This document shows, one piece after another, positions 1-49,238 of a stretch of 64,000 nt of DNA; within the stretch, counting starts at the first letter, position 1; each line of letters begins with the position of its first letter. The notes beneath the pieces were generated by a model. That model was not told the DNA's origin. It searched no databases and saw nothing but the letters and a program-made list of their open reading frames with translations. Both the position numbers and the translations under genes were made by a program. This DNA comes from Elusimicrobiota bacterium (lineage in GTDB: Bacteria; Elusimicrobiota; Elusimicrobia; UBA1565; JACRDR01). The DNA is taken from positions 8,148 through 72,147 of the forward strand of contig JBGFSC010000033.1 in assembly GCA_041694815.1 (NCBI GenBank), in the 5' to 3' direction.

Positions 1-312
1 AGGCAGTATCCTTGGTAGCTCAGGGGGCGCAGCAGGTAGCTGGAGATGCGTCCCGAGGCGATTTCGCCGACCACCTCCCAGCCGCGCCCCGTGAACGCGA
101 AGGAGCGTAGCAGGGAGACGGCGAGCACGTAGCTGAGCATCTGGGCCCTGGAGTAGCCCAAAAAGCGTTCGTCTTGGCCCAGCAGGGCGGACCAGAAGAA
201 ATACAGCGCGAGGATGGCCGCCAGGCCCCCGACGCGGTCCATCAGTAGGGAGGCGCGCCGCTGCAGCACGTTCTGCAGGCTCAGCGAATAAACGTAGAGG
301 TACTTGCTCATG
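1..312 (-). CDS. ABC-2 type transporter permease, partial (N-terminal part; gene continues past window start)
   Basis: Minus-strand ORF starting MSKYLYVYSLSLQNVLQRRASLLMDR..., hydrophobic. Its start overlaps the stop of the upstream ATPase gene (CATCTGGCATGAGC). Confidence 0.5.
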
Positions 313-1294
313 CCAGATGGGAGCTGTCGGCGAAAAGGCTGCGGACTACTTCCTGCACGGGGGTCTCCTCGATGGTGAGGTCCGCGACGGGAAAGCGGGA
401 GAGCAGAGCGGCGGCGCGCTTGGAAACCTCCGAGCGCGGCACCTCGATGACCGCGTGCAGCCCTCCGTTTTCGGCCACCCGGCCGATCTCCTCGAGCGCG
501 GAGGCGGGGACCGCCTCGTTGAAGTCCGCGCGGATCACCTTGACCGGGGCGTAGCGCTCCACGACCCGGCGCAGCGAGCCGTCGTATAGCAGCCGCCCCG
601 AATCGATGATCAACACGCGGGGGCAGAGCTCGACGATATCGTCCATGTTGTGGCTGGTGAGCAATACGGTGGCCTTGTTGCGCCGGTTGTATTCCAGGAC
701 GAATTGGCGCACGCGCTTCTGCATCACCACGTCGAGCCCCAGGGTCGGCTCGTCTAGCAGCAGCAATCTAGGCCGATGGAGTATGGCCACCGCCAGCTCC
801 GCCTTCATGCGCTGGCCGAGCGAGAGCTTCTTGACCGGGATCGACAGGCAGCCTTGCAGCTCGAGCAGGTCGACGAGCTCCTCGACGCTGCGCCGGTACT
901 CGGCCTCGGGGACCTCGTAGATCTTCTGATTCAGGCGGAAGGTCTCCTGCGCGGGCAATTCCCACCACAATTGGGAGCGATGCCCCATGACCAGCGAGAA
1001 CTGCTTCTGGAATTCCGATTCCCGCTTCCAGGGCACGAAGCCGAGCACGGAGGCCGTGCCGGAGCTGGGGTTGAGCAGGCCCGAGAGCATCTTGAGGGTC
1101 GTCGTCTTCCCCGCGCCGTTGGCGCCTAAAAATCCGACGAGCTCGCCTTCCTCGATCCGGAAGCTGGCGCCGACGACGGCGGGAATGTCGCGCCATTGGC
1201 GGTGCAACAGGGATTTAAAGGCGTTCCAGAGTCCGGGCCCCTTCTCCGGCACTCGAAAAGTCTTGCTGAGGTTGGAAGCCTCGACGATAGCCAC
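308..1294 (-). CDS. ABC transporter ATP-binding protein
   Basis: Walker A GANGAGKTT, ABC signature LSLGQRMK, Walker B LLLLDEPT, H-loop TSHNM. Confidence 0.9.
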   Translation of the reverse strand: MAIVEASNLSKTFRVPEKGPGLWNAFKSLLHRQWRDIPAVVGASFRIEEGELVGFLGANGAGKTTTLKMLSGLLNPSSGTASVLGFVPWKRESEFQKQFSLVMGHRSQLWWELPAQETFRLNQKIYEVPEAEYRRSVEELVDLLELQGCLSIPVKKLSLGQRMKAELAVAILHRPRLLLLDEPTLGLDVVMQKRVRQFVLEYNRRNKATVLLTSHNMDDIVELCPRVLIIDSGRLLYDGSLRRVVERYAPVKVIRADFNEAVPASALEEIGRVAENGGLHAVIEVPRSEVSKRAAALLSRFPVADLTIEETPVQEVVRSLFADSSHLA

Positions 1295-1320
1295 GCCTTA
1301 TTGTACTAAAGCTATGCGTT

Positions 1321-1818
1321 TTAAGGTTTGAATCCAATTTTCGGAGAGGGCCTTTTCTGGCCCGCCATAAGCCGCCGAATGGCACCGAAAATGTTCTGGA
1401 TGTAGATGTCATGGCCCTGCATTTTACGCTCGAGTTTCTGTAATTTTTGGGCGGACTCTTTGTGGGTAGAGATTATTTCGCGCAGTCGAATGAAGGCCCG
1501 CGCTATTTTTACGCTGGCCTCGATGGCGACCGGGGTGTGGAGAACGCTGGAAAGCATGACTGCGCCATACTCCGTAAAGACGTGCGGGAGATAACGGCGT
1601 CCTCCGCGGCCCATGTTTGAGGTTGCAAAATGCAACCTCAAAGAATCGGCCTCCTCGGGAGTCAATTGGAACATGAAGTCTTCGGGAAAGCGCTTTCAAT
1701 TGCGGCTGACTTGTTGATTAAGCCGTTTTGTCGTGACGCCGTAAAGAGCTACGAGATCAACGTCGAGCATGACTTTGTGGCTGCGAATCAAATAAATGCG
1801 GCGCTCGATTTGTTCCAT
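1321..1818 (-). pseudogene. ORF6N-domain protein interrupted by a single in-frame TGA
   Basis: N-terminal 40 codons MEQIERRIYLIRSHKVMLDVDLVALYGVTTKRLNQQVSRN (1818..1699), then TGA at 1698-1696. The same frame continues KRFPEDFMFQLTPEE...GGRRYLPHVFTEYGAVMLSSVL (track ORF 1321..1674). The joined ~165 aa matches the ORF6N family end to end. Confidence 0.65.
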
Positions 1819-1951
1819 GGGAATTATTGATTTCATTCGGGCTCCTGCTACATATATATACGAGTGAACCCCACCTTTTGTTCCCTTCTTCTGCAGAAAT
1901 TCTGCAACAAAGGCCTATTGGGGTATTAGGTCTTTAGTCTCATGCGGGGGT

Positions 1952-2644
1952 ATGAGATCCGGGGTTACTATAAGCCAGGTCATGAAAAGGCGATTTCGTC
2001 GATATGGCCTAGCGGCTCTTTTCCTATGCCAGGGCCTGGGACTTTCCGGATTTCGCCGGCCTGAATCCAGCGTGGGAAAGCCATCGAACCCGGAACCAAA
2101 ATTTCCTTTGCTTGGCGACGTCGTTGACCTGGATGCAGTCACAGAGGAGCTGTTAGGAGAGTTGGATAAGTTGCGAACTTCGACGAGTCCGTCGCCGTTA
2201 GGCGTTATGGATCCTCGTGATCTAATTGACCCGGCGTTAGGCGGGCGCTTGGCAAGGTCGATTCAATTCCGTTTGCCTGGGCCGGCCGAAGCGGAACGTC
2301 TTTTGCGGTATTATGTACGCAAGAAACGTATATCACTGGACATCGATGTTGATTTGCGGGCGGTGGCCTCCGAGGCTCAGGGTTTATCCTCTGCTCAACT
2401 AAAACAGCTAGTCGATGAGGCAGGCTCACAGATGGCGTGTCGGTGGGCGTCTTCAGTGAATGCGGATGATTTCCGTGAAGCATTGGAGGTGTTGCAAATG
2501 GGGCCGGTCCAAGCTGAGGAAGCGAGGAGAAGAAGAAGGGAAGAAGCAATGAATGAGCTGGCAGAGCGTTTCCGCCATCAGGCGACCGCCTTGCCTGGCG
2601 AAGGAATCGAAACCGCTGTAGAGCGATTTAGGTTGCAGTGGTAA
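1952..2644 (+). CDS. exported degenerate AAA+ domain protein (sensor and lid regions kept, no Walker A); probable start 1982
   Basis: MKRRFRRYGLAALFLCQGLGLSG is signal-peptide-like. DLIDPALGGRLARSIQFRLPGPAEAERLL resembles the AAA second region of homology. DVDLRAVASEAQGLSSAQLKQLVDEAG is a lid-like helix. No GxxGxGKT motif. C-terminal tail ...TAVERFRLQW. Confidence 0.5.
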   Translation: MRSGVTISQVMKRRFRRYGLAALFLCQGLGLSGFRRPESSVGKPSNPEPKFPLLGDVVDLDAVTEELLGELDKLRTSTSPSPLGVMDPRDLIDPALGGRLARSIQFRLPGPAEAERLLRYYVRKKRISLDIDVDLRAVASEAQGLSSAQLKQLVDEAGSQMACRWASSVNADDFREALEVLQMGPVQAEEARRRRREEAMNELAERFRHQATALPGEGIETAVERFRLQW

Positions 2645-3369
2645 CTGTTCCTAAAGTTGAGAATGCGTGGAAAGTGGATGCCTGGCACCCAATGAATCGC
2701 CTGGGGCGATCCGTTCGTCTTTTGATCTTTTTGTCGAGCGCGTTGACGCCGGCCTCCGCCATCGGGCCTCGTGGTCCGGGGACGCCGCCGCCAACGTCTT
2801 CGGATCCCGCAAAAACCCGGTTAGCGGATTTGCTAGCCAAGCTGCGAGGAACAGGAAACAAAATTTGTGCAGCAACAATATTACTCACGGGTGTAGAGGA
2901 TAGAGATCGAGACGACATACTTTCTTTGTTGGATCCGATGCCGATAGTTGTAGTTCATCCCGATGGGCTCCGTGCGAACTATGTCGGAGGAGCCTCCCAG
3001 CGTCTTAATGAGGTGTTCAGCCAGGTGACGGCTAAGCACGACGGAGGAGCTTTGTATCTTGATGATTTTGATGAATTTAATAAGGACCCGGTATTAAGGT
3101 CGCAAACGATAATGGGCATAGATACGGCGGTCGCGCTGAGCAAACTAAAGGGATTTCCGGTATTGATATTTGCGCAGACCAATTGGCCGGAGCGCCTAGA
3201 CCCTGCTTTGCGTCGCCGCTTCGCGTACGTGATCAACTGGCGAGCGGACGAACTTCTTCGTGATAAGCAGATTAAGAGGCTGCAAGAACTCCTGGCCGAT
3301 CAGGCTTCGCCGGTCTCTGCTTGGGCGGATGCCGAGACTGCGGAGCGGCGCTTCAAGCTGCCTTGGTAG
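2638..3369 (+). CDS. exported P-loop-less AAA+-like protein; probable start 2692
   Basis: MNRLGRSVRLLIFLSSALTPASA is signal-peptide-like. ILLTGVEDRDRDD sits where GPPGTGKT would be. LYLDDFDEF is Walker-B-like. VLIFAQTNWPERLDPALRRRF matches the sensor-1/arginine-finger region. C-terminal tail ...ETAERRFKLPW. Confidence 0.5.
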   Translation: MVTVPKVENAWKVDAWHPMNRLGRSVRLLIFLSSALTPASAIGPRGPGTPPPTSSDPAKTRLADLLAKLRGTGNKICAATILLTGVEDRDRDDILSLLDPMPIVVVHPDGLRANYVGGASQRLNEVFSQVTAKHDGGALYLDDFDEFNKDPVLRSQTIMGIDTAVALSKLKGFPVLIFAQTNWPERLDPALRRRFAYVINWRADELLRDKQIKRLQELLADQASPVSAWADAETAERRFKLPW

Positions 3370-3407
3370 TTGCTTCCCCGGGCTTATTTTGATAATATAA
3401 CGTTTCC

Positions 3408-3719
3408 ATGTACGCGATCATCGAGACGGGCGGCAAGCAGTTCTGGGTCACCCCCGGCGAGGTCATCCGGGTCGAGAAACTCGAGGCCAAGGAAGGCTCG
3501 GAGCTTAAGCTCAAGGCCCTCTGGGCCGCGGGCGAGCCCGGGCAGGGCGGCGACTCCAAGAAGCTGCCCTCCGCCGAGGTAACGGTGCAGGTCGTCAAGC
3601 AGCTGCGCGCGCCCAAGGTCATCGTCTTCAAGAAGCGAACCAAGAAGGCCTACCAGAAGACCCAGGGCCATCGCCAGGACCTGACCGAGATACGCATCAA
3701 AGAAATTTCCCTGAATTAA
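3408..3719 (+). CDS. rplU: 50S ribosomal protein L21
   Basis: MYAIIETGGKQFWVTPGEVIRVEKL is a typical L21 N-terminus. Sits directly upstream of L27. Confidence 0.9.
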   Translation: MYAIIETGGKQFWVTPGEVIRVEKLEAKEGSELKLKALWAAGEPGQGGDSKKLPSAEVTVQVVKQLRAPKVIVFKKRTKKAYQKTQGHRQDLTEIRIKEISLN

Positions 3720-3731
3720 CCGGATTTATTT

Positions 3732-4010
3732 ATGGCACATACAAAAGCGCAGGGCTCTTCCTCAAACGGACGCGACAGCCATGGGCAGCGCCTGGGCGTC
3801 AAGCGCTACGGCGGCCAATTCGTCCTGGCCGGCTCGGTGCTGGTCCGCCAGCGTGGCACCAAGTTCCTTCCGGGGCTCAACGTGGGCCGCGGCAAGGACG
3901 ACACCCTCTTCGCCAAAGCCTCGGGTGTGGTGACATTCCAGTGGGCCAAGAAGGACAAGAAGCGCCTGAGCGTCATCCCTTCCGGCAACGGCGCCGCGAA
4001 CGGCCAGTAA
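3732..4010 (+). CDS. rpmA: 50S ribosomal protein L27
   Basis: [31 protein letters not shown] is the canonical L27 N-terminus. Confidence 0.9.
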
Positions 4011-4037
4011 GACTCCGTTTTCCTCGAGGACCGGCGA

Positions 4038-5354
4038 GTGACAAACTTCGTCGATAAAGTCCGCATTTTTGCCAAGGGCGGGCAGGGGGGAGACGGCTGC
4101 CTTTCCTTCCGTCGGGAGAAATACGTAGAATTCGGTGGACCCGACGGCGGAGACGGCGGGCGGGGCGGCGACGTCTACCTCGTCGCCGACCGTAATCTTG
4201 GCACCCTGCTGGATTTTACCCGTCGGCCCCATCTCGAGGCTTTATCCGGAGAAAACGGCAAGGGCGCCAATAAGACGGGGCGGGGGGCAGACGATCTTAT
4301 CGTCTCGGTCCCGATCGGGACGATGGTCTACAAAAGGGACCAATTGCTCGCGGATCTAGTCGAAGAGGGCCAGAGGGTGCTCGTCGCCAAGGGCGGCCGC
4401 GGCGGCCGAGGTAACCTGTCATTCAAGAGCCAGCGCAACACCGCTCCCCGCATCGCCGAGAAGGGCGAGCCCGGCGAGCAGGCCGTCGTCGACCTGGAGC
4501 TCAAGCTCATCGCCGACGTGGGCCTGACCGGGCTGCCCAACGCGGGCAAGTCGACGCTGCTGGCCAGGCTCAGCCGCGCGCGCCCCAAGATCGCGGATTA
4601 CCCGTTCACCACCCTGGCGCCGCATTTAGGCGTCGTCGAGCATAAGCGCTCGAGCTTCATCATGGCCGACATCCCGGGGCTCATCGAGGGGGCGCATCGC
4701 GGCAAGGGCTTGGGTGACGCCTTCCTGCGCCATATCGAGCGCACGCGCCTGCTGGTTCACTTGGTCGATCCGTTGGGCTACGGCGGCAAAAGCGCCGAGG
4801 ATGGGGTGCGCGTCATCGAGGCGGAGCTTAAGTCTTTTTCCGCGAGGCTGGCGAAGAAGCCGCGCGTTCTGGTGGTCAACAAGATGGATCTGCCCGAGGG
4901 CCCCGTCGTGCTGCGCCGATTGCGCGGCCGCTACAGAACCCGTCCCGTCTTCGGCATCTCCTGCGCCTCGGGGCAGGGGGTCTCCGAGCTCGCCGACCGG
5001 CTCGCCGAGGAGCTCGCCCGCCTGCCTCGGGAGGGCGAGGGGGCGGCCCGGCCGGCCGGGCCCGAGAAGCTCCTGGTTAGCCCCGGCTTCGAGATCCGGC
5101 GGAGGCAGGGGGGCTTCGAGGTCTCGGGAGCCTACGTCGAGCGGATCGTGCGCATGGCCGACCTGTCGCTGCCCGAATCGGTCGCGCGGCTGCAGCTGGC
5201 CCTGCGGAAGGTCGGGGTCGACCGTGCGCTTCGTAAGGCCGGCATCCAGAACGGCGACGTCGTTCGCGTGGCGGGGCACGAATTCGAGTGGTCGGACGCC
5301 CCCTTCGCCCCACCGCCCCGCATCCCCCGTACCCGGCGCACCCGCATCCAATGA
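4038..5354 (+). CDS. obg: GTPase Obg/CgtA
   Basis: Obg fold N-terminal domain [27 protein letters not shown]...[13 protein letters not shown]-domain motifs [22 protein letters not shown]. Conserved rplU-rpmA-obg order. Confidence 0.9.
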
Positions 5355-6232: not shown

Positions 6233-7077
6233 CGGGCGGGGAGGCGGCGGCCCGGCGCTCGAGCTTCTACGTGGGGTTCCTGTTTTTGCCCTCCGAGAAG
6301 CGCCGCGCGCTCACCGAGGTCTACGGCTTCTGCCGGATGATCGACGACATCGTCGATTCGGGAGAGCTCACCCGTGTTGAAGCCGAGAAGAGGCTTGAGT
6401 TCTGGCGCGAGGAGATCGCGCGGCTCTACGAGGGCAGGCCGGGCCATCCCGTGTCCCAGGCGCTCGCCTACCCCGTCGAGCGCTTCGCCCTGCCGCGGCA
6501 GGCCTTCCTGGACCTCATCGGCGGCTGCGCGATGGACTTGGAGCGCCGCCGCTACGAGGATTTCAAGGAGCTGGAGGCCTATCTCTACGGCGTCGCCGTC
6601 ACGGTGGGGCTTCTCTGCGTCGAGATTTTCGGCTACCGTCACAGCGACGCGGCGCGCGTTCGGGAATACGCGACGCACCTGGGCTACGCCTTCCAGCTCA
6701 CCAATATCCTGCGCGACGTGGGCGCCGATCTCGAGATGGGGCGGATCTACCTGCCCCTCTCGGAAATGCGCGCGGCAGGCTACTGCGTCGAGGAGCTCCA
6801 TAGCCGCCAGCATAACAAGGCCTTCGTGGCGCTCATGGAGGCGCAGTATGCGCGCGCCAAGGGCTATTACGCCCGCGCGCGGACCCTGCTGGACCCGCGC
6901 GATCGCGCGGGGATGCTCGCCGCCGAGCTCATGGCCCGTCATTATGAAGGGGTGCTCGACGAGATACGCCGGCGGCAGTACAGGGTCTTCTTCGAGCGGA
7001 TCGGCTTGAGCCCCTGGCAGAAGCTGCGTTTGGCCGCGGCCGGCTGCGCCTACAGCTATGGGCTTGTGACACCATAA
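6190..7077 (+). CDS. hpnD: presqualene diphosphate synthase HpnD-like
   Basis: SSFYVGFLFLPSEKRRALTEVYGFCRMIDDIVDS, YAFQLTNILRDVGADLEMGRIYLP. Second squalene-synthase-family paralog in the hpnC-D-E order. Confidence 0.7.
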   Translation: MGLDEAAVVRVGGVTGGEAAARRSSFYVGFLFLPSEKRRALTEVYGFCRMIDDIVDSGELTRVEAEKRLEFWREEIARLYEGRPGHPVSQALAYPVERFALPRQAFLDLIGGCAMDLERRRYEDFKELEAYLYGVAVTVGLLCVEIFGYRHSDAARVREYATHLGYAFQLTNILRDVGADLEMGRIYLPLSEMRAAGYCVEELHSRQHNKAFVALMEAQYARAKGYYARARTLLDPRDRAGMLAAELMARHYEGVLDEIRRRQYRVFFERIGLSPWQKLRLAAAGCAYSYGLVTP

Positions 7078-7329
7078 TATGGACGATCTGGAGGCCCGAG
7101 CTTGAGACGATTTCGAGGCGCGACGAGGGAGCATAGCCGTAGGCTATGTGACCGAGGAGCAACGATGAAATCGGCCAAGCTCGGGCCTCCCCGCAGGGGC
7201 CGGGCGATTTTGGGCTGCGCCAGCGTCGCTCGTCGCTCACATACCGCTGCGGGTATGCTCGCTCCTCGCTCCTTGGCTCGCTCCAAAATCGCCTCGGCCA
7301 GATCGTCCATATTATGGTGTCACAAGCCC
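7060..7329. repeat. intergenic element bounded by a perfect 32-bp inverted repeat (gggcttgtgacaccataatatggacgatctgg), with internal hairpins
   Basis: Left arm 7060-7091, right arm 7298-7329 as exact reverse complement. Inner palindromes catagccgtaggctatg and cataccgctgcgggtatg. Overlaps the hpnD stop and ends 2 nt before the hpnE ATG. Confidence 0.7.
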
Positions 7330-9233: not shown

Positions 9234-9482
9234 AAAGCGGTAACTTTCGCCTGCAAACGCGGCTTCGGCCTGTTCCCCAGCGCCGCTACTTGAGGCGTAC
9301 CTTTTAGTAGCCGCGTTCGTCGCTCTTTGATTCGTCTCGAAATCCGTATTTTTGCGTTCGAACCGTGTTTTTGAACGGCTTCTAGAAAAATATCCACCTT
9401 ATTGCAAAAACCATTTATAACAATTGCGTTTTTTGCGCCAACTCCGTCTGAAAAGAGTTGGAGCGAAAAGACTTTATAGAAC

Positions 9483-10427
9483 ATGCGCTTTTTTACCCAA
9501 TGTGGATATTTTTCGAGTCGGGACGGAACTTATTCGTGGCTCGATCGTATATATAGTATGGCGATGATCGAGTTAGACGGCGAGCGATTGCTCGCCGAAT
9601 GCGACACGAAGAAAGATGCCGAACTGTTTGCCAGGCTGGAGCGCTTTCGAGGAGAAGAGTCCGAGTCGCTCGCGCAGACATTGGCATGTTTGGCGACGTT
9701 GGATAGACGCAAGGCGGCTGATGAGCTTGCGGACGGTTCTCTGTTTCTCTATTGCACTCGGAAACTCGGTTATTCCGAGGCAGAAGCCTATATGAGAATC
9801 CGGGTGGCGCGAGCCGCCAACGACTTTCCGCGGATTCTAACGATGATCGGTCGCGGGCAGATCCATGTCAGCGCGGTCGCCCGGATAGCGCCTTATCTGG
9901 ATTCCGAAAATTATAGGAGCCTGCTGGGCAAGGCCAGTCGGCGAAGCCGCGAGGAACTCGATCGGCTGATTGCGGAATTAGAGCCGCAGATAGAGAGGCG
10001 ACCGGTCATTCGCTCTCTATCCGTGGGGAATAATGCTCGCGCTCCGATTGTCACAGCGGAATCGCTCTTCGAACCGCCTTCGCCGCAGCTTCACTCTTCT
10101 TTCTCGCAGTCGGCATCGGGAAGGGAAAATAAAATCGAGATGAAGATCGAGCCCTGGCTGCCGACGGCCGTGCCTGATAACGCCGGCGCGTGTTCCGTTC
10201 GCCCGCCTGCCGGCCGGGTTTTATTTAGCTTCGTCGGCAGCGAGGCCTTTCGGGCTAAATACAAGCGGGCGAAGGAAATATTGCTTCATAAATATCCCGA
10301 TGGAAGTCCAGAGAAGATATTCGATGACGCGTTGGAAGCGCTGTTGGACAAAAAAGATCCTTGGCGCCGATTGGCGAGGAAAGAAAGGCGCCGGGCGATG
10401 GCAGGCTCTGAGGTGGATTCTTCATAG
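9483..10427 (+). CDS. DUF222-like (13E12-repeat) domain protein with no detectable HNH nuclease domain
   Basis: ARLERFRGEESESLAQTLACLATLDRRKAADELADGS...RIRVARAANDFPRILTMIGRGQIHVSAVARIAPYL resembles the N-terminal domain of DUF222/HNH proteins. AT-rich DNA on both sides. Confidence 0.4.
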   Translation: MRFFTQCGYFSSRDGTYSWLDRIYSMAMIELDGERLLAECDTKKDAELFARLERFRGEESESLAQTLACLATLDRRKAADELADGSLFLYCTRKLGYSEAEAYMRIRVARAANDFPRILTMIGRGQIHVSAVARIAPYLDSENYRSLLGKASRRSREELDRLIAELEPQIERRPVIRSLSVGNNARAPIVTAESLFEPPSPQLHSSFSQSASGRENKIEMKIEPWLPTAVPDNAGACSVRPPAGRVLFSFVGSEAFRAKYKRAKEILLHKYPDGSPEKIFDDALEALLDKKDPWRRLARKERRRAMAGSEVDSS

Positions 10428-10577
10428 CTCTGGTGCATGGGCCCGCTTCCAAATACGATAAACGCTTGCGCAGTGACATCATAGGACCTTAGGCCTATTT
10501 CCAGGAGTCCTAAAAAACCACGTATTAAGGCCCTAAAGGCTCAGGCGGCTTAGCCGTTTGGCGCGTACACTTTACCA

Positions 10578-11285
10578 ATGCGTTTGCCGTGGATTCTCTG
10601 CTGTTTGCTCGCCGTCGCACCGTCTCTGGCGGCCGAAACCGTCGAGTCGATCAAGGCCGGCTCCGGCGTTGACTTCGGAGAAGGAGCGACGGCGGTTGGC
10701 CTGACGGGAAATCCCTCGAATTCCTCTTTCGGGTCTCAATTCGCCGCCCTATTTAAGCTCGGCCAAGCCAGGAGGCAGACGCCTGGAGTTAGGCGCAGGG
10801 GGCCGATCATCGTCAAGGAGCCGGCGCCTCCGCCGTTTCCGAAAAATCACGATTATTGCTGGCCAAGCGCCTTGGACCGCGCGGCGGGTTTCGTGATCGG
10901 AGTTGTTTTTCCGACGGTGCTTCTAACCGCCTTGAGTTTTGCCTCGGGCATCGGCTTGGGGACCGGCTTAGAGAGTGCTACCAGCATGGCCGGCTTCCTA
11001 TTGCCCCGACTCGCGGGAGTCCTCTACGGGGTCACTACGGTGATGGCATGGGCTCATATAGTGAATTGGATGCTCCGTCAGACATGGATTCAATGGCCGA
11101 AAGGCCGCGCGAAACCGGTGGATCCCATGGCGATCGTAATGGCGTTCGCCCTAGGATTCTTTTCTCCTCCGCTGGCCGGATTGATCATCGGCTGGAGTAT
11201 GGGCCGGCATTGGGCGGCGTTCCTATCCCAGAGACTGGGCTGCGCGGTTGAGAAACTTCTCTATCGAATATGGTATCGCCTATGA
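10578..11285 (+). CDS. signal-peptide/multi-pass membrane protein, paralog A of a five-member family (divergent)
   Basis: SP MRLPWILCCLLAVAPSLAAE, then ETVESIKAGSGVDFGEGA, PIIVKEPAPPPFPKNHDYCW, then 3-4 predicted TM helices. Same architecture as paralogs B-E. Confidence 0.5.
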   Translation: MRLPWILCCLLAVAPSLAAETVESIKAGSGVDFGEGATAVGLTGNPSNSSFGSQFAALFKLGQARRQTPGVRRRGPIIVKEPAPPPFPKNHDYCWPSALDRAAGFVIGVVFPTVLLTALSFASGIGLGTGLESATSMAGFLLPRLAGVLYGVTTVMAWAHIVNWMLRQTWIQWPKGRAKPVDPMAIVMAFALGFFSPPLAGLIIGWSMGRHWAAFLSQRLGCAVEKLLYRIWYRL

Positions 11286-12415
11286 AACCGATTTTATTGG
11301 CTCTTGCCCTGGCCCTCGCCGCCGACGCGCCGGCCTCGGCCGGCGAAAGCGAGGAGCTCAAGGCGGCTCTCGAGGAGACCCGGGGCCTGCTGGACATGAA
11401 CAAGCCCCGCCGGGAATTCGAGCGCCATAGCGGCGATATGCGTTCGGTGGCCTTTTCCTCCGACGGCTCCATGATCCTCTCTGCCAGCCACGGCAACGTG
11501 TTCCTCTGGGGGGTCGACGACCTGGAGTTTATCACTAAATTTGAGCCGCCGAACGAATACGGTGGCTTCCACGGGGCCCAGCTCAGTCCGAAAGATGAAA
11601 CGCGAATCCTTACCGCTAGCACGAACTGGGTCATCCTGTGGCGGTGGAACCAGGAGGAAGGCGCGCTCGAGCGGGTCAAGAAACTCGACGTTGGGGGAGA
11701 CGGCGCCGAGATCGCGATCTACAGCACCGATGGCTCTCGCATCGTCACGGCTCACGGCAAGAGCGCTATCGTATGGGACGCCGATGGTAACAAGTTGGCC
11801 CTCATCGAGGCGCCGGGCGACATCCATTCGGTTTCGATCAACCCGGAAGGCTCGAGATTGGTCACGGTGCATCGGGACGGGTCGGCCAGCGTGTGGGAAG
11901 TCGGAGTCCTGAAAAAGAAGCTTCTCCTGTTTGATGTGATTGGTGGGAAAAGGCTTCTGGACCTTCCCAAAGGCAATCGGCGGGGAGCCGCGCTTTTTAG
12001 CCCCGATGGTTCCAAGTTCCTGACCCTCGGCGGAGATTTCAGGCTGCGGGATGCGTCGAACTGGCAAGATTTGGGGATTTTCAAGCCAGAACAGGGGGTG
12101 TTTTCGACGGCGGCGTTCAGCCGGGACGGCTCGCGAATTGCGGCCGCTAACGATAAGGAAACGGTGGTATTCAACGCCAGGACGGGTGAGATCGTCAAGG
12201 TGCTGCCGCCCGCCCTTTGCGTGGGATTTAGCCCGGAGGGTACTTATCTGGCGACCGGAGGGATCGATCGCGTGGTTCGAGTTTGGAAGATAGCCTTCTC
12301 GTCGCAGGAGCTCAAGGCCGTGGAGCATCGTCTAAAGAATAAGGCGAACGCCGCCGATCCTGAAAAGGCGAAGGACGAGATCCAGACGGCCGAGGAGCGC
12401 TTTAGGCTTGATTAG
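11270..12415 (+). CDS. exported WD40 beta-propeller protein 1, ends ...TAEERFRLD
   Basis: SP MKPILLALALALAADAPASA. WD40 blades, e.g. SVAFSSDGSMILSASHGNVFLWGVDD, VSINPEGSRLVTVHRDGSASVWEV, VGFSPEGTYLATGGIDRVVRVWKI. Overlaps both flanking paralog genes. Confidence 0.7.
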   Translation: MVSPMKPILLALALALAADAPASAGESEELKAALEETRGLLDMNKPRREFERHSGDMRSVAFSSDGSMILSASHGNVFLWGVDDLEFITKFEPPNEYGGFHGAQLSPKDETRILTASTNWVILWRWNQEEGALERVKKLDVGGDGAEIAIYSTDGSRIVTAHGKSAIVWDADGNKLALIEAPGDIHSVSINPEGSRLVTVHRDGSASVWEVGVLKKKLLLFDVIGGKRLLDLPKGNRRGAALFSPDGSKFLTLGGDFRLRDASNWQDLGIFKPEQGVFSTAAFSRDGSRIAAANDKETVVFNARTGEIVKVLPPALCVGFSPEGTYLATGGIDRVVRVWKIAFSSQELKAVEHRLKNKANAADPEKAKDEIQTAEERFRLD

Positions 12416-13010
12416 GGTCCTAGCGGCAGCTTTGGTATTGTCTTATTTTTGCGTGCCAGCCGGCGCCGGCGAGCTGGAGGAGGCCAAGCAGGAGTCCGGG
12501 ATCGAGTTCGGCGAGGCGGGGGCCGCCGCTTCGGTCCTAAGTCCGATCCCCGCGCGCGCCCCGGGCCCGATCGCGGGCCTGATGCATTTGGTTCAGAAGG
12601 CCAGGCGCGGAGGCCCGCCGGCGCCCATCGTCGTTTCCGAACCCATCAATCATAAGAATTGTTTGTGCAAAAACAGCGCGGACGAAGAATTTCTAGGTTA
12701 TATAGTCGCTCTCTTGCCCCTAGCCGCCGGGATTCTCGTAATGATCGTTTTTGGAGACCCATTTTTTGGCGGCGTGGCACGCGCCGCGATTCCCCAAATG
12801 ATTCTGGCGCGACTTGCCGCATCCGCGCTTGTCACCGCCTGGTTTTGTCGCTTGCGGAGTCCTATAAAATTCGATTGGTTAACGGGCACCACTCTCGGGC
12901 TCATCGCTGTGACGACGGCGGTTTTTCCGCCTATTGGCGGAGCTTTCCTGAGCTACTTATTGGTTGGGGATCTAATTAGGTGGTTCCATCATTTCCTGCG
13001 CCGAGAATGA
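12408..13010 (+). CDS. signal-peptide/multi-pass membrane protein, paralog B
   Basis: SP, GELEEAKQESGIEFGE, PIVVSEPINHKNC, 3-4 TM helices, C-terminal WFHHFLRRE. Confidence 0.6.
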   Translation: MIRVLAAALVLSYFCVPAGAGELEEAKQESGIEFGEAGAAASVLSPIPARAPGPIAGLMHLVQKARRGGPPAPIVVSEPINHKNCLCKNSADEEFLGYIVALLPLAAGILVMIVFGDPFFGGVARAAIPQMILARLAASALVTAWFCRLRSPIKFDWLTGTTLGLIAVTTAVFPPIGGAFLSYLLVGDLIRWFHHFLRRE

Positions 13011-13597
13011 AGACCTCTATTTTCTTGACCTTAATCGTTCTGGTGGCTTCGGGTCAGCGAGAGAGGCTTTTCGCCGGCCAAGCCGAGGCGATAAGGCATG
13101 AGTCGGGAATTTTTTTCGGGGAAGGCATGTCCGTGCCCTCCTCGGTCGCGGCGGAGGACAGGCGGATCGGCCCCTCCGCCCTGCTGTTCGCCTTCCAAAA
13201 AAAGAAAGCCGGGCCGAGAGGGCCCATCGTAGTGAAGGAACCGATCAATCACAAGGTTTGTTCTCCAAATCGGCGCGAGCAATTGGCCGGAGCGGTGGCT
13301 GGAATTATCGTCCCGACCCTTGCGGTCTTGGGAATGGAACTCGCTTGGGCCTTTAGTGGTGTTTCCTCACCCATGACTTTCCTGGCGCCGCGGGCCATCG
13401 GCATGGCGCTGGCCGGAGTTTTGGCCTTGGCCTGGGGCCGGTCTCGTAAAACCAGTCTTTCCGAGAATGCGATGTTTTCGACCATGGCGGCCGCCACGGG
13501 CTTTATATCCCCGTCCGCCGGCATATTCGTGTTAGGGATGGTCTTTACGAGCCAGGTCTTGGCCTCCTGGTTCCACCGCCGTCTTCATCTCTTATGA
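13007..13597 (+). CDS. signal-peptide/multi-pass membrane protein, paralog C
   Basis: SP MKTSIFLTLIVLVASG, AEAIRHESGIFFGE, PIVVKEPINHKVC, TM helices, C-terminal WFHRRLHLL. Confidence 0.6.
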   Translation: MKTSIFLTLIVLVASGQRERLFAGQAEAIRHESGIFFGEGMSVPSSVAAEDRRIGPSALLFAFQKKKAGPRGPIVVKEPINHKVCSPNRREQLAGAVAGIIVPTLAVLGMELAWAFSGVSSPMTFLAPRAIGMALAGVLALAWGRSRKTSLSENAMFSTMAAATGFISPSAGIFVLGMVFTSQVLASWFHRRLHLL

Positions 13598-14151
13598 AGA
13601 ACTCAGCTTTCAGATACGTATTCCTTGGCCTCGCCTTCGCGGCGGGCGTACTGCACGCCGGGTCCCTCGAGGAGGCCAAGGATGGGTCGGGAAGCGTGTT
13701 CGGGGAGTCCGCTGGCTCTTCGGCCTCCGCCCCGCCCGCGCGGCTAGGGATTACCGATAAGGTCCGACCGCTCGTAGCCAGACTTTACCGGCCCCGTAGG
13801 GAGCCGATCATCGTCAAGGAACCGCCCAATCATCGGCTCTGCTTTCCAGATAATAAGGACGCTAAAATCGCGACCTGGATCGCCGTCATCCTGCCCGCGA
13901 CGGCCATTACGGTGCTGGCCGCCACCTCGGCCTTGGGGCTGTCGCCCATTTCCTTCGCAGTGCCGGGCGCCATCGGCGCGGGACTGACCATCATCGGCCT
14001 AATTAGGGCTGACATGTTTAGGCCCAGCTGGAAGGCGATCGCCGTCGCCGCCGCCTTGGGTTTCTTCTTGCCGGCTATTCCGGTGCTTTTCTGGGGCGCC
14101 GGCTTATGGGATGGCGCCGTGTCCTGGATTCATCGGCTGAGGCATCGATGA
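13594..14151 (+). CDS. signal-peptide/multi-pass membrane protein, paralog D
   Basis: SP, GSLEEAKDGSGSVFGE, PIIVKEPPNHRLC, TM helices, C-terminal WIHRLRHR. Confidence 0.6.
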   Translation: MKNSAFRYVFLGLAFAAGVLHAGSLEEAKDGSGSVFGESAGSSASAPPARLGITDKVRPLVARLYRPRREPIIVKEPPNHRLCFPDNKDAKIATWIAVILPATAITVLAATSALGLSPISFAVPGAIGAGLTIIGLIRADMFRPSWKAIAVAAALGFFLPAIPVLFWGAGLWDGAVSWIHRLRHR

Positions 14152-15262
14152 ATATCCTCTTTATGGCCGCAGCCGTGCTCGCGGCCTCGTTGCCCGGCCG
14201 CGCCTTCGCCCAGGCTCGAGGCATACTCGCGGAGCGCAAGGCCTTTCTCGAGGAGATCGAAGCGCAGCGGCCCACCGAGCCGACGCTGACCCACACCCTG
14301 CAGGCTTCGGGACCCATCGCGTTTAACGGAGACGGTTCCCTGGCGCTTATCGGCTCGACCTTGTTCGACGCCAGGAGCTGGAAGGTGGCCGGATATTTGG
14401 ACGGCCATAAGCAGGCGGTGACCGCCGCGGCCGTTTCCCAGGACGGCAGGATCGCGGCGACGGCGAGCTGGCACAGCCGGGACAAGACGGCGATCCTATG
14501 GGAGCTTCCCTCCGGCCGCCAGGCTCGCGCGATCAAGGGGCCTTCGGCCATACTCTCGCTCGCCTTGAGCCCCGACGGTTCGCGGCTCGTCACGGGACAT
14601 CATAATAAAAGCGCGATCATCTGGGATGTCGCCACCGGCAAGAGGGTGCTCGAACTCATAGGGAATGAGAATACGGTCTACGCCGTGGCGTACAGCCCCA
14701 GCGGAGAAAAGATCGCCACGGCGGGGGCGGATGAAAAAATCCATATCTGGGACGCCAAGACTGGAAAACGGACGCATTGGGCCGAGGGTAGCCTTGGCGC
14801 GATCATCTCCTTGGCGTTTACTCCAAACGGCGATAAGATCATCAGCGGTTCCGATAAAGGGATGGTGGAAGCCACGCCCGTCAACGGCGGTCGAGGATGG
14901 AAACCTCTCTTTAAGAACGTCGGCAAACCGTATTCAATCGCCGTCAGCCCTAATGGGAAAAAAATCGTGGCGGCCGGCACGATACCCAGGCTGTTTGATG
15001 AGGTGAGCGAACGGTTCTCCTTTTTCGAGCTGACGGCCTCCCGGTCGAAGGGGACTTCTTTTCCGTCGCGTTTTCTCCCGGGGGTTATGAAATATTGATC
15101 TCCGGGCTCGATGGGATCACCAGGGTATGGTCCATCGCTATGTCGCCCGAAAGGATACGGGAGAAGCTCAAGGAGTTCGACGAGCGCCTCAGGCAATCCG
15201 CGGCCATCCAAGCCGCCAACGGAGAAGCCATCGACGCCGAGGAGAGGTTCAAATTATGGTAG
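14106..15262 (+). CDS. exported WD40 beta-propeller protein 2 with an apparent frameshift (possible pseudogene or homopolymer error); ends ...DAEERFKLW
   Basis: Track ORF 14106..15098 has SP plus WD40 blades (VTAAAVSQDGRIAATAS, LSLALSPDGSRLVTGHHNKSAIIWDV, VYAVAYSPSGEKIATAGADEKIHIWDA). The last blade FFSVAFSPGGYEILISGLDGITRVWSI...AEERFKLW* reads only in another frame, open from about 15004 to 15262. The shift lies near a T5 run around 15025-15040. Confidence 0.55.
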
Positions 15263-15843
15263 CGCGCCTATGCCTCGCCTTCATTCTATATTTGCCCGTC
15301 ATGTCGCGGGCCGGGGAGACGGAAAAGCTCAAGCAGGAGTCCGGTATTCTATTTGGAGAGAGTCGGCAAAACACCGGTGCCGTGTCGTTCTTTAGGCTGC
15401 CGGGACGCAAGGCCGGACCCGCGGCGGCGAACGCCGCGGCGCCCAAGGCCATGCCGCCCAATATCATCCCTCCGCCGCGATTTAACAGGTATGACGTTCC
15501 TACCTGGGAAATTTTAGCAAGCTTCTTGGTGACGGTCGCCCTGCCTTTGGCGGCCGCCGGGGCGGCTCAGCTGGGCATTCAGGCGAGCATACAGGCGAGC
15601 GCAGGGCTTCCTTTGATCGGCTGGCGCGTGTTGGGCGGCTTGGCATGCGGCATTTGGGCGCTCGCCTGCGGTTGGGCCAATCCGAAGCAAAGGATGAATA
15701 AATGGGTTTTCGGCGCCTTGATGGCGGGGCTCGGGAGTTTTTTGCCGGGCGGCGCCGCTTTTTTGCTATCTGCCGTCTCCATGAACCAATTGCTCGGCCC
15801 GGTCGCCTCATGGATACACAGCGCCCTTAAGCGAGAGCCGTGA
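15256..15843 (+). CDS. signal-peptide/multi-pass membrane protein, paralog E
   Basis: SP MVARLCLAFILYLPVMSRAG, ETEKLKQESGILFGE, Pro-rich linker, TM helices, C-terminal WIHSALKREP. Its ATG overlaps the TGG-TAG end of WD40 protein 2. Confidence 0.6.
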   Translation: MVARLCLAFILYLPVMSRAGETEKLKQESGILFGESRQNTGAVSFFRLPGRKAGPAAANAAAPKAMPPNIIPPPRFNRYDVPTWEILASFLVTVALPLAAAGAAQLGIQASIQASAGLPLIGWRVLGGLACGIWALACGWANPKQRMNKWVFGALMAGLGSFLPGGAAFLLSAVSMNQLLGPVASWIHSALKREP

Positions 15844-15892
15844 CCCGGTTCGCGTTTACATCCCGTACATAATTTAGTACCATTCTTCAGTC

Positions 15893-49144: not shown

Positions 49145-49238
49145 TACCGATAAACCGGCAAACCCTCCGCGAGGAGGGGGCGCAAAGCGTAGGGCCTGGA
49201 GGTCCAGGTCGCCTGGCTACCGAAGACAACAGTAGGTT
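49145..49238 (+). promoter_or_regulatory. candidate c-di-GMP-I (GEMM) riboswitch aptamer
   Basis: ggCAAACC-cuccGCGAggagg-GGCGCAAAGC-...-uggCUACCGaag matches the GEMM signature: GNRA-capped hairpin, CGCAAAGC junction, second hairpin, UACCG. Enclosing stem acuguugu/acaacagu. Confidence 0.5.

Follow-up and report, generated by a model that had tools for sequence, protein, structure and literature searches.

Two adjacent AAA-derived proteins without a P-loop and with a shared C-terminal tail in an Elusimicrobiota genome

Described relatives and the locus

Catalytically dead AAA+ subunits are known from the clamp loader (delta-prime) and from chloroplasts (FtsHi and Ycf2). Such subunits are widely conserved and work in the cytoplasm or stroma, where they share a ring with active ATPases. 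Further, the WRPW tail of Hairy/Hes proteins is bound by the WD40 propeller of Groucho/TLE. We analyzed two adjacent open reading frames that can be compared with both cases, ORF1 and ORF2, which lie in a 64,000-nucleotide stretch of Elusimicrobiota DNA (the window) together with the following genes.

1321..1818, minus strand: gene of the ORF6N family (PDC-S05-like), oriented divergently to ORF1 and containing an in-frame TGA at 1698-1696
1982..2644, plus strand: ORF1, 220 aa (230 aa from an alternative ATG at 1952)
2692..3369, plus strand: ORF2, 225 aa (its alternative start, a GTG at 2638, overlaps the stop of ORF1)
11270..12415, plus strand: WD1, a WD40 protein with signal peptide and tail (final residues AEERFRLD); a membrane paralogue (memb2) begins at a TTG that overlaps the WD1 stop
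14106..15262, plus strand: WD2, a second WD40 gene with signal peptide and tail (ends AEERFKLW); a further membrane paralogue (memb5) begins at an ATG that overlaps the WD2 stop

The best sequence and fold matches of the two ORFs are AAA proteins of the classical clade (Cdc48/p97, Rix7/NVL, AFG2, FtsH/Yme1, PAN/Rpt and Vps4/spastin). ORF2 shares with them the beta1-beta5 core (as modeled), the pore-loop YVG, the sensor-1 TN and LDPALRRRF, while ORF1 shares the second region of homology (SRH) and the four-helix lid. Unlike classical AAA proteins, both ORFs are without Walker A and catalytic Glu, ORF2 is without most of the lid, and both begin with an export-type N-terminus and end in an unrelated tail; identities are only about 20-35%. 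Like the dead AAA+ subunits, in which the fold serves structure or interaction, they appear to keep the fold and the arginine-finger face while their own ATP site is degenerate, and FtsHi (8xku) is among the sequence and structure matches. In contrast to those subunits, they look exported, no active AAA partner is encoded near them and their occurrence is limited to a single genome.

Among named bacterial subfamilies, the anti-phage AAA ATPase IetA (IteA), together with the IetA-like 'RRF / LTPGDFA' AAA proteins, scores best for ORF2 and its nearest database relatives, and a defense-candidate (PDC-S05-like) gene is located next to ORF2. It differs in having neither an IetS protease partner nor a P-loop. 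Membership in IetA/IteA is ruled out, since scores were 20-29 bits (20.7, 27.4) versus the NCBIfam cut-off of 510 and IetS is missing; no protease gene was found in the islet. Compared with WRPW and Groucho, the likeness would consist of a short Trp-ending C-terminal motif that recurs on different proteins whose genes accompany those of WD40 propellers. Here, however, the WD40 proteins themselves carry the tail, and the setting is bacterial and predicted to be extracytoplasmic.

The AAA core, the lid and the nucleotide-binding site

The original prediction described both ORFs as AAA+ proteins without a P-loop, each with a Walker-B-like acidic patch, a sensor-1/arginine-finger region and a lid helix. 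The elements located in the two ORFs are listed below.

2129..2497, plus strand: ORF1, AAA remnant with alpha3, a degenerate beta4, the SRH 'IDPALGGRLARS', beta5 and a complete lid domain
2890..2916, plus strand: ORF2, GVEDRDRDD at the Walker A (GxPGTGKT) position, with P69E, G70D, G72D and K73R
2980..2988, plus strand: ORF2, retained YVG, as placed by alignment
3052..3072, plus strand: ORF2, Walker B strand LYLDDFD, with the Asp kept and the catalytic Glu replaced by Asp (E125D)
3160..3222, plus strand: ORF2, SRH VLIFAQTNWPERLDPALRRRF, with sensor-1 Thr-Asn and the RRF arginines kept

ORF2 consists of a predicted Sec-type signal peptide, a Pro-rich linker, an AAA alpha/beta core without P-loop and the common tail. 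It matched Pfam PF00004 (AAA) with 29.4 bits at a cut-off of 21.2, covering profile positions 25-128 of 131, and judged by these matches is a near-complete AAA core of the classical clade. As originally predicted, GVEDRDRDD occupies the Walker A position: in pairwise and multiple alignments 'LLTGVEDRDRDDI' aligns in register with 'LLyGpPGTGKSaf' of the relatives. Walker A is kept in 108 of the 112 related segments. The Walker-B-like patch stood for ORF2 with the change of DE to DD (context LYLDDFDEF), and the sensor-1/arginine region 'FAQTNWPERLDPALRRRF' is intact. Altogether 19 of 32 family-conserved positions are kept in ORF2, including all eight of the SRH (QTN...LDPALRRRF) and the YVG, which we take to be the pore-loop-1-type motif of classical AAA proteins; none of the four Walker A positions is retained, nor is the Glu of Walker B. 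This concentration of losses on nucleotide-binding residues corresponds to hypergeometric values of 2e-4 to 5e-4 in a post-hoc test and points to a pseudoenzyme pattern rather than random decay.

An AF2 model of ORF2 reached a pLDDT of 85-92 over residues 40-190, a confidence that leans on the AAA alignment, and contained beta1-beta5 and two C-terminal helices; a single-sequence model was uninformative (pLDDT 37). Searching the PDB with the alignment-based model gave Rix7/NVL, Vps4, spastin, Cdc48, Rpt and FtsH as the best fold matches. The similarity to AAA proteins that the original prediction had asked to be checked is thus clear by sequence and by model and falls in the classical clade, Cdc48 and FtsH included. 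The lid part of the claim failed for ORF2, where the full lid is reduced to two helices.

In case of ORF1, a signal-like N-terminus is followed by the rear half of an AAA core, a full lid and the common tail. Residues 60-200 of the 230-aa form match p97/Cdc48/NSF with an E-value of 1e-13 (phmmer), while the protein database holds the 220-aa form. The AAA_lid_3 match (E 4e-4) was below cut-off and a PF00004 profile search gave no match for ORF1. Strands beta1-beta3 and the whole Walker A region are absent, so that ORF1 is a half core plus lid rather than the P-loop-less AAA+ protein originally described, although its lid is complete. VVDLD (2120-2134) as a Walker B remnant is doubtful, resting on one weak alignment. 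The SRH is only partly kept: the sensor-1 Asn is replaced by Asp and one of two Arg fingers is gone ('VMD...DPALGGRLAR'). The half Rossmann-like core of ORF1 is unlikely to fold alone.

Judged by their residues, both proteins have been shown to be incapable of binding or hydrolyzing ATP in the AAA manner. ORF2 is predicted to be non-catalytic because an acidic run replaces the P-loop and Asp replaces the Walker B Glu, and ORF1 because its N-terminal half is absent. The described picture of an AAA-derived protein that is catalytically dead and has an export-type N-terminus fits ORF2 and applies to ORF1 only as a half core with lid.

ORF1 and ORF2 do not derive from a frameshifted full-length AAA gene. 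The hidden Walker A that was to be looked for in all frames was not found: the motif G....GK[ST] is absent in every frame upstream of and around both ORFs, and tblastn of 113 AAA proteins against positions 1-4200 located AAA similarity nowhere outside the two ORF frames. Recent duplication, or one gene split by a frameshift, is likewise ruled out, because the detectable mutual similarity of the ORFs is limited to the 36-aa tail. They lie in different frames, each with its own signal-like start and tail.

N-termini, shared tail and genomic surroundings

The N-termini and tails have the following positions.

1982..2050, plus strand: ORF1 N-terminus MKRRFRRYGLAALFLCQGLGLSG, signal-peptide-like or with a possible non-canonical lipobox (LFLC); weak
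2692..2760, plus strand: ORF2 predicted signal peptide MNRLGRSVRLLIFLSSALTPASA, with cleavage predicted at ASA|IG
2528..2641, plus strand: ORF1 tail copy (...NELAERFRHQATALPGEGIETAVERFRLQW)
3241..3366, plus strand: ORF2 tail copy (...ELLRDKQIKRLQELLADQASPVSAWADAETAERRFKLPW), modeled as two helices

Signal peptides were judged by simple rules: n-region charge, the h-region and small residues at -3 and -1. By these rules, ORF2 has an n-region of +3, an h-region and the ASA|IG site, making its N-terminus a convincing candidate Sec signal peptide. The N-terminus of ORF1 has a charge of +5 and a weakly fitting candidate cleavage site (LSG|F), and its maximum KD9 of 2.07 was not above that of the cytoplasmic control hpnE. 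Of the two signal-peptide-like starts originally proposed, that of ORF2 is therefore clear by the rules and that of ORF1 weaker, with control-like hydrophobicity. A hydrophobic signal-like start is common to all four tail-bearing proteins. Our literature search on exported AAA pseudo-ATPases returned nothing relevant.

The tail is about 40 residues long, terminates in ERF[KR]L(x)W and occurs in four copies in the window, on ORF1, ORF2 and the two WD40 proteins, all of which fit the C-terminal pattern [ER]RF[KR]L(x)W. The earlier proposal that ORF1 and ORF2 share it with the WD40 proteins held at all four places, with 4 copies observed versus 0.10 expected (300 Markov simulations). An HMM built from the four tails detected no fifth copy in the window (next match E 2); the four themselves score E 1e-17 to 1e-25 by construction. 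No tails were found in 80 related loci, and a degenerate tail peptide pattern searched in metagenome and viral contigs gave pattern matches of which none was confirmed.

Some of the genes for five membrane paralogues, each with a signal peptide and 3 TM segments, overlap the WD40 genes; these paralogues had no relatives in GTDB genomes or the protein database. In related genomes, dcd and rplM are spaced by 0.6-1.2 kb versus 6.7 kb here, which indicates that the WD40/membrane island is an insertion. Synteny is conserved in relatives from rplU onward, and the DNA upstream of rplU is not conserved. No tRNA, islet-flanking repeats or Rfam family were found in the region.

Interpretation and alternatives

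We consider it about even odds (a probability near 0.5) that ORF1 and ORF2 are real, lineage-private, exported and dead AAA-derived members of a tail-defined family in a horizontally acquired islet. In this Elusimicrobiota genome, the two genes would lie in a low-GC acquired islet bordering the conserved rplU...rpsI block. Members of the family would follow a common plan of N-terminal export signal, borrowed globular part and a C-terminal tail (about 40 aa) that finishes with ERF(K/R)L(x)W, where the globular part would be a WD40 propeller in two members, an AAA alpha/beta core in ORF2 and a rear half-core with lid in ORF1. Both ORF products would be sent by Sec to the ATP-free periplasm, where they may serve as inert binding modules. 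The tail, modeled as a helical hairpin, could be a common docking or oligomerization element that links family members mutually or to a common partner, for which the signal-peptide/3-TM paralogues overlapping the WD40 genes are candidates. ORF1, which has the lid but not the front half, and ORF2, which has the core but not the lid, appear complementary and could pair as one pseudo-AAA unit.

A number of observations speak against this explanation. No homologue of ORF1, ORF2 or the membrane paralogues was found, the GC3 of the two ORFs departs from that of the host, the ORF6N gene carries a nonsense codon, WD2 is frameshifted and WD1 has lost the tail Trp. In addition, ORF1 is a half-core with a weak signal, the single-sequence AF2 model is uninformative and no promoter-like site was found. 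Recent or ongoing decay is a serious alternative because the missing homologues coincide with foreign codon usage and a broken neighboring gene. Under this alternative, which we regard as possible but rather unlikely, ORF1 and ORF2 are non-functional relics of one or two AAA genes in a decaying acquired islet, still open through recent inactivation and possibly descended from tail-bearing exported proteins or from IetA-like conflict-system ATPases, to which the sub-threshold IetA matches would correspond. ORF1 would then be a 5'-truncated half domain. The in-frame TGA of the adjacent ORF6N/PDC-S05-like gene marks the islet as decaying mobile or defense-type DNA, the frameshift of WD2 lies near 15000 and the WD1 tail is clipped at its terminal Trp. 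GC3 of the two ORFs is 0.52-0.56 versus 0.83-0.90 in core genes. Searches of ORF1 and ORF2 against 5.8e9 protein clusters returned no homologue, those of ORF2 against 1.84e9 representatives only distant AAA proteins, and those against metagenome (JGI) and viral (IMG/VR) contigs no close homologue. The absence of a promoter-like site is also in line with relics.

Several features do not agree with simple decay. Both ORFs (220 and 225 codons, adjacent on the plus strand) are highly divergent from all AAA proteins, with identities of at most about 30-38%, and yet are stop-free. In favor of real genes, their composition follows GC1>GC3>GC2, like coding DNA of a genome of ca. 52% GC, and the highest-scoring frame is the annotated one. 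The losses in ORF2 cluster at residues that bind the nucleotide and spare the SRH and the hydrophobic core, the tail motif is retained in both ORFs despite saturated synonymous change, and the layout of signal, domain and tail is the same as in the WD40 members. Nevertheless, the signs of erosion make the current function of the family uncertain, and the family may be eroding, perhaps already in decay.

The tail could also be conserved at its end because the codons there serve to initiate translation of a downstream gene that overlaps it, with GAGGAG as Shine-Dalgarno sequence and NTG-G-TAR as start/stop. Stop/start overlaps indeed occur at ORF1/ORF2 (GTGGTAA), WD2/memb5 (ATGGTAG) and WD1/memb2 (TTG...TAG), and in the WD copies GAGGAG precedes the start by 9-19 nt. 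We judge this reading improbable: no overlapping gene follows the ORF2 tail (rplU starts 39 nt 3' of ORF2), tail similarity reaches about 40 residues upstream and no DNA conservation was found around the tail beyond the codons. Codons for R, F, K/R and L vary among copies while the amino acids stay constant, and these synonymous differences point to selection on the peptide. The codon comparison thereby shows tail conservation to be at the protein level. Least probable is that the hydrophobic N-terminus is an anchor or irrelevant and ORF2 an inactive cytoplasmic-face subunit lending its arginine-finger/sensor-1 face to an active AAA in the manner of clamp-loader delta-prime or FtsHi-type subunits, for although RRF, TN and YVG are selectively kept with the P-loop lost and the neighbors by structure and sequence include inactive FtsHi subunits, the N-terminus has the positive n-region, h-region and ASA|IG of a textbook cleavable Sec signal, an active partner gene is missing nearby and the other tail-bearing proteins also look exported.

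An extension of the exported-family explanation, which we hold to be doubtful, would have the four tail proteins and the five signal-peptide/3-TM paralogues form an undescribed extracytoplasmic assembly in which the tail acts as a portable docking tag and ORF1 and ORF2 reconstitute a split, nucleotide-free periplasmic AAA module. If such a split module were true, it would be the first case of an AAA-derived pseudoenzyme that bacteria export.

In conclusion, ORF1 and ORF2 are so far a curiosity rather than a proven new system. Since the family is restricted to a single metagenome-assembled genome of Elusimicrobiota and shows signs of erosion, its main value is that of a documented orphan that can be recognized should relatives appear. 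If ORF1 and ORF2 are made and exported, the AAA fold could be reused outside the cytoplasm for binding that needs no ATP, and a short portable C-terminal tail would mark unrelated exported domains for a common partner, providing a new case for pseudoenzyme evolution and for bacterial C-terminal sorting or docking tags.

Two AAA-derived reading frames

Two adjacent AAA-derived genes were delimited by ORF calling, each with alternative starts:
1952/1982-2644, + strand: ORF1
2638/2692-3369, + strand: ORF2

Both are singletons in a public protein collection, ORF1 as a 220-aa form (start 1982) and ORF2 as a 225-aa form (start 2692), and both entries trace to a single 154,608-bp NCBI contig. The annotated frames scored highest against local codon tables and showed the GC1>GC3>GC2 order of coding DNA. 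No further paralogues were found within the window, and outside a common C-terminal tail the two proteins show no detectable mutual similarity.

In ORF2 an AAA core has been specifically disarmed. The Pfam AAA profile (PF00004) matched residues 102-200 of the 243-aa form with 29.4 bits (cut-off 21.2), limited to profile positions 25-128 of 131 and with the Walker A part outside the match. PDB sequence matches were Rix7, AFG2, Yme1, FtsH and spastin (E 1e-4 to 0.1). When 1.84 billion representatives were searched exhaustively with phmmer, the ORF2 query came back together with 112 distant AAA proteins, of which the top one had an E-value of 2.5e-12 and 26% identity. GxxxxGK[ST] is present in the ORF2-matched segments of 108 of these 112 relatives, and both pairwise and MAFFT alignments place ILLTGVEDRDRDDI of ORF2 onto their LLLYGpPGTGKSaf, in agreement with the original prediction of a non-P-loop run at this position. 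At least 75% of relatives agree at 32 positions, and ORF2 retains 19 of them, among these the pore-loop YVG and the full set of eight from the second region of homology (T163, N164, L169, D170, A172, R175, R176, F177). None of the four conserved Walker A positions is kept (P69E, G70D, G72D, K73R), nor is the Walker B glutamate (E125D). With the 13 changes placed randomly, this split has a probability of 2e-4 to 5e-4 in a post hoc test.

AF2 gave no usable fold from the single ORF2 sequence (pLDDT 37). With a 21-row AAA alignment, pLDDT reached 73 overall and 85-92 over residues 40-190, in the order alpha0-beta1-alpha1-beta2-alpha2-beta3-alpha3-beta4-alpha4-beta5. Since only two helices follow beta5, a full lid is missing. 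A Foldseek PDB search with this model returned classical-clade AAA proteins (Rix7/NVL, Vps4, spastin, Cdc48, Rpt, FtsH-type) as top matches; because the model depends on that alignment, this is compatible with an AAA fold and not independent proof of it.

For ORF1, similarity was found to p97/Cdc48/NSF (D2 and D1 domains), PAN/Rpt and FtsH, with E-values down to 1.5e-13. The match is confined to residues 60-200 of the 230-aa form (alpha3, beta4, SRH, beta5 and lid) and no counterpart of beta1-beta3 was found in the protein. ORF1 is thus a rear half-core plus lid and not, as had been proposed, an AAA domain missing just its P-loop. Its beta4 is degenerate, with SPSPLGVMD in place of vfiigATN, so that the sensor-1 asparagine is now aspartate, and GGRLAR stands where AAA proteins have RPGRLD. 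VVDLD (2120-2134), followed by a deletion of about 16 residues, may be a Walker B vestige, as seen in one weak alignment. Of the AAA+ landmarks ascribed to both ORFs, ORF2 has the second region of homology but no full lid, and ORF1 has the lid, its Walker B patch being doubtful. An AAA ATPase role is excluded for both proteins.

A P-loop hidden in another frame, as in a frameshifted full-length gene, was ruled out. A six-frame motif scan of the window found Walker A in unrelated genes only (ABC ATPase at 1126 on the - strand, Obg at 4530, others far away), and tblastn of 113 AAA proteins against positions 1-4200 gave similarity solely at 2129-2488 (ORF1 frame) and 2803-3297 (ORF2 frame), one weak extension of the former reaching 2003.

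Classical-clade AAA ATPases are the nearest known relatives. IetA-like ATPases are the best-scoring named bacterial subfamily, with scores far below membership cut-offs. Close relatives were absent from protein clusters and from metagenome and viral contigs, and for ORF2 also from the 1.84 billion representatives.

Shared tail and N-termini

ORF1, ORF2 and a WD40 gene finishing at 15262 end in [ER]RF[KR]L(x)W-stop, and a second WD40 gene, finishing at 12415, ends in a clipped ERFRLD-stop. The anticipated tail common to AAA-like and WD40 proteins is therefore present, one WD40 copy being clipped. The window has four occurrences, whereas 300 Markov simulations averaged 0.10 and peaked at 1. The similarity spans about 40 residues, comprising an ExLKxLxERLxxQA-type helix, a loop and xETAEERF(K/R)L(x)W; in ORF1, an apparent repeat within the tail lies as follows:
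2555-2641, within ORF1: tail part with a repeat-like helix motif, residues 192-220

Run against the six-frame translation of the window, an HMM built from the four copies recovered those four alone, and the tail pattern gave no confirmed match in metagenome and viral contigs, the only collections scanned. In ORF1 and the other copies the tail also reads like a doubled short helix motif (ERFRHQA ... ERFRLQW; ERLRQSA ... ERFKLW), which may point to an origin by internal duplication.

Codons vary among copies (R CGA/CGC/AGG; F TTT/TTC; K/R AGG/AAG/AAA; L TTG/CTG/CTT/TTA) and no DNA conservation extends beyond them, which argues for selection on the peptide in each family lineage. In three of four copies the tail end overlaps the next start codon (GTGGTAA, ATGGTAG, TTG...TAG) and the GAGGAG codons of 'EE' sit at Shine-Dalgarno distance from it, which may add nucleotide-level constraint. 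A purely nucleotide-level explanation draws on these same features and leaves unexplained the tail of ORF2, where no gene overlaps downstream. At the junctions (2638-2644, 12408-12415, 15256-15262) the stop overlaps the start of a signal-peptide gene (GTG, TTG and ATG, respectively) by 7-8 nt; together with the GAGGAG spacing, this geometry suggests translational coupling.

Signal peptides were judged by simple rules. By these, the predicted export signal is textbook Sec in ORF2 (n-region MNRLGRSVR, h-region LLIFLSSALTP, cleavage site ASA|IG) and weak in ORF1, which has five positive charges, a moderately hydrophobic stretch no more hydrophobic than the N-terminus of cytoplasmic HpnE (control), and a poor cleavage site or non-canonical lipobox (LFLC). 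Signal-like segments also open both WD40 proteins and five membrane paralogues. As judged from sequence, the tail securely defines a four-member set whose members all have export-like starts.

Genomic setting

By its Obg protein the genome belongs to Elusimicrobiota, the best Obg matches being in lake and groundwater MAGs (72% and 68% identity). Relatives conserve the block rplU-rpmA-obg-hpnC-hpnD-hpnE-dcd-(0.6-1.2 kb)-rplM-rpsI. The dcd-rplM gap is 6.7 kb here versus 0.6-1.2 kb in related Elusimicrobiota, so the WD40/membrane island is an insertion. The AAA-like pair lies at the opposite edge of the same block, and no synteny was found in relatives' DNA upstream of rplU.
9234-15892: dcd-rplM gap, with two signal-peptide WD40 genes carrying the tail, five paralogous signal-peptide + 3-TM proteins and a 314-aa ORF (9483-10427)
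1321-1818, - strand: ORF6N-family gene (PADLOC PDC-S05, E 4e-25), directly upstream of and divergent from ORF1

The five paralogues share the motifs ESGIxFGE and PIVVKEPxNHxxC; no relatives were found in GTDB genomes or the protein database. The ORF6N gene is full length but for an in-frame TGA at 1698-1696 (…QQVSRN*KRFPEDFMFQL…), and is either a pseudogene or affected by a sequencing error. The WD40 gene at 14106-15262 is frameshifted near 15000, its WD40 frame ending at 15098 and the last blade and tail lying in another frame to 15262. Elsewhere, a perfect 32-nt inverted repeat between hpnD and hpnE (7060-7091 and 7298-7329, arms 206 nt apart) could be a small mobile element or structured RNA, and a c-di-GMP-I riboswitch aptamer lies at 49147-49224 on the + strand (Rfam RF01051, 56.9 bits, gathering score 35).

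Possible roles of the pair

We assign a probability of about 0.5 to ORF1 and ORF2 being real exported dead-AAA modules with the tail as a docking element. A helical-hairpin tail would serve in docking or oligomerization, the ORF1 lid and ORF2 core might pair, and the WD40 and 3-TM proteins would be possible partners. Dead AAA+ subunits include clamp-loader delta-prime and FtsHi. We know of no exported bacterial example, and a literature search for one found nothing.

That the two genes are relics out of use is a less probable but still serious reading. The ORF1/ORF2 stretch, bounded by a core ABC-ATPase gene and by rplU, has 47-59% GC with about 65% in each flank, and GC3 is 0.52 (ORF1) and 0.56 (ORF2) versus 0.83-0.90 in surrounding core genes. 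This foreign codon usage and the lack of homologues beyond distant AAA proteins, together with the half-domain nature of ORF1 and the broken neighbours (ORF6N TGA, WD40 frameshift), are evidence for recent acquisition and may reflect ongoing erosion. A cytoplasmic inactive-partner role and the nucleotide-level explanation of the tail jointly take the small remainder.

For exported dead-AAA modules as for relics, ORF1 and ORF2 are single-genome orphans. Their frames, long and open despite deep divergence, the selective loss of nucleotide-binding residues only, and the retention of the tail despite synonymous saturation are evidence that they functioned for a time as non-catalytic proteins.
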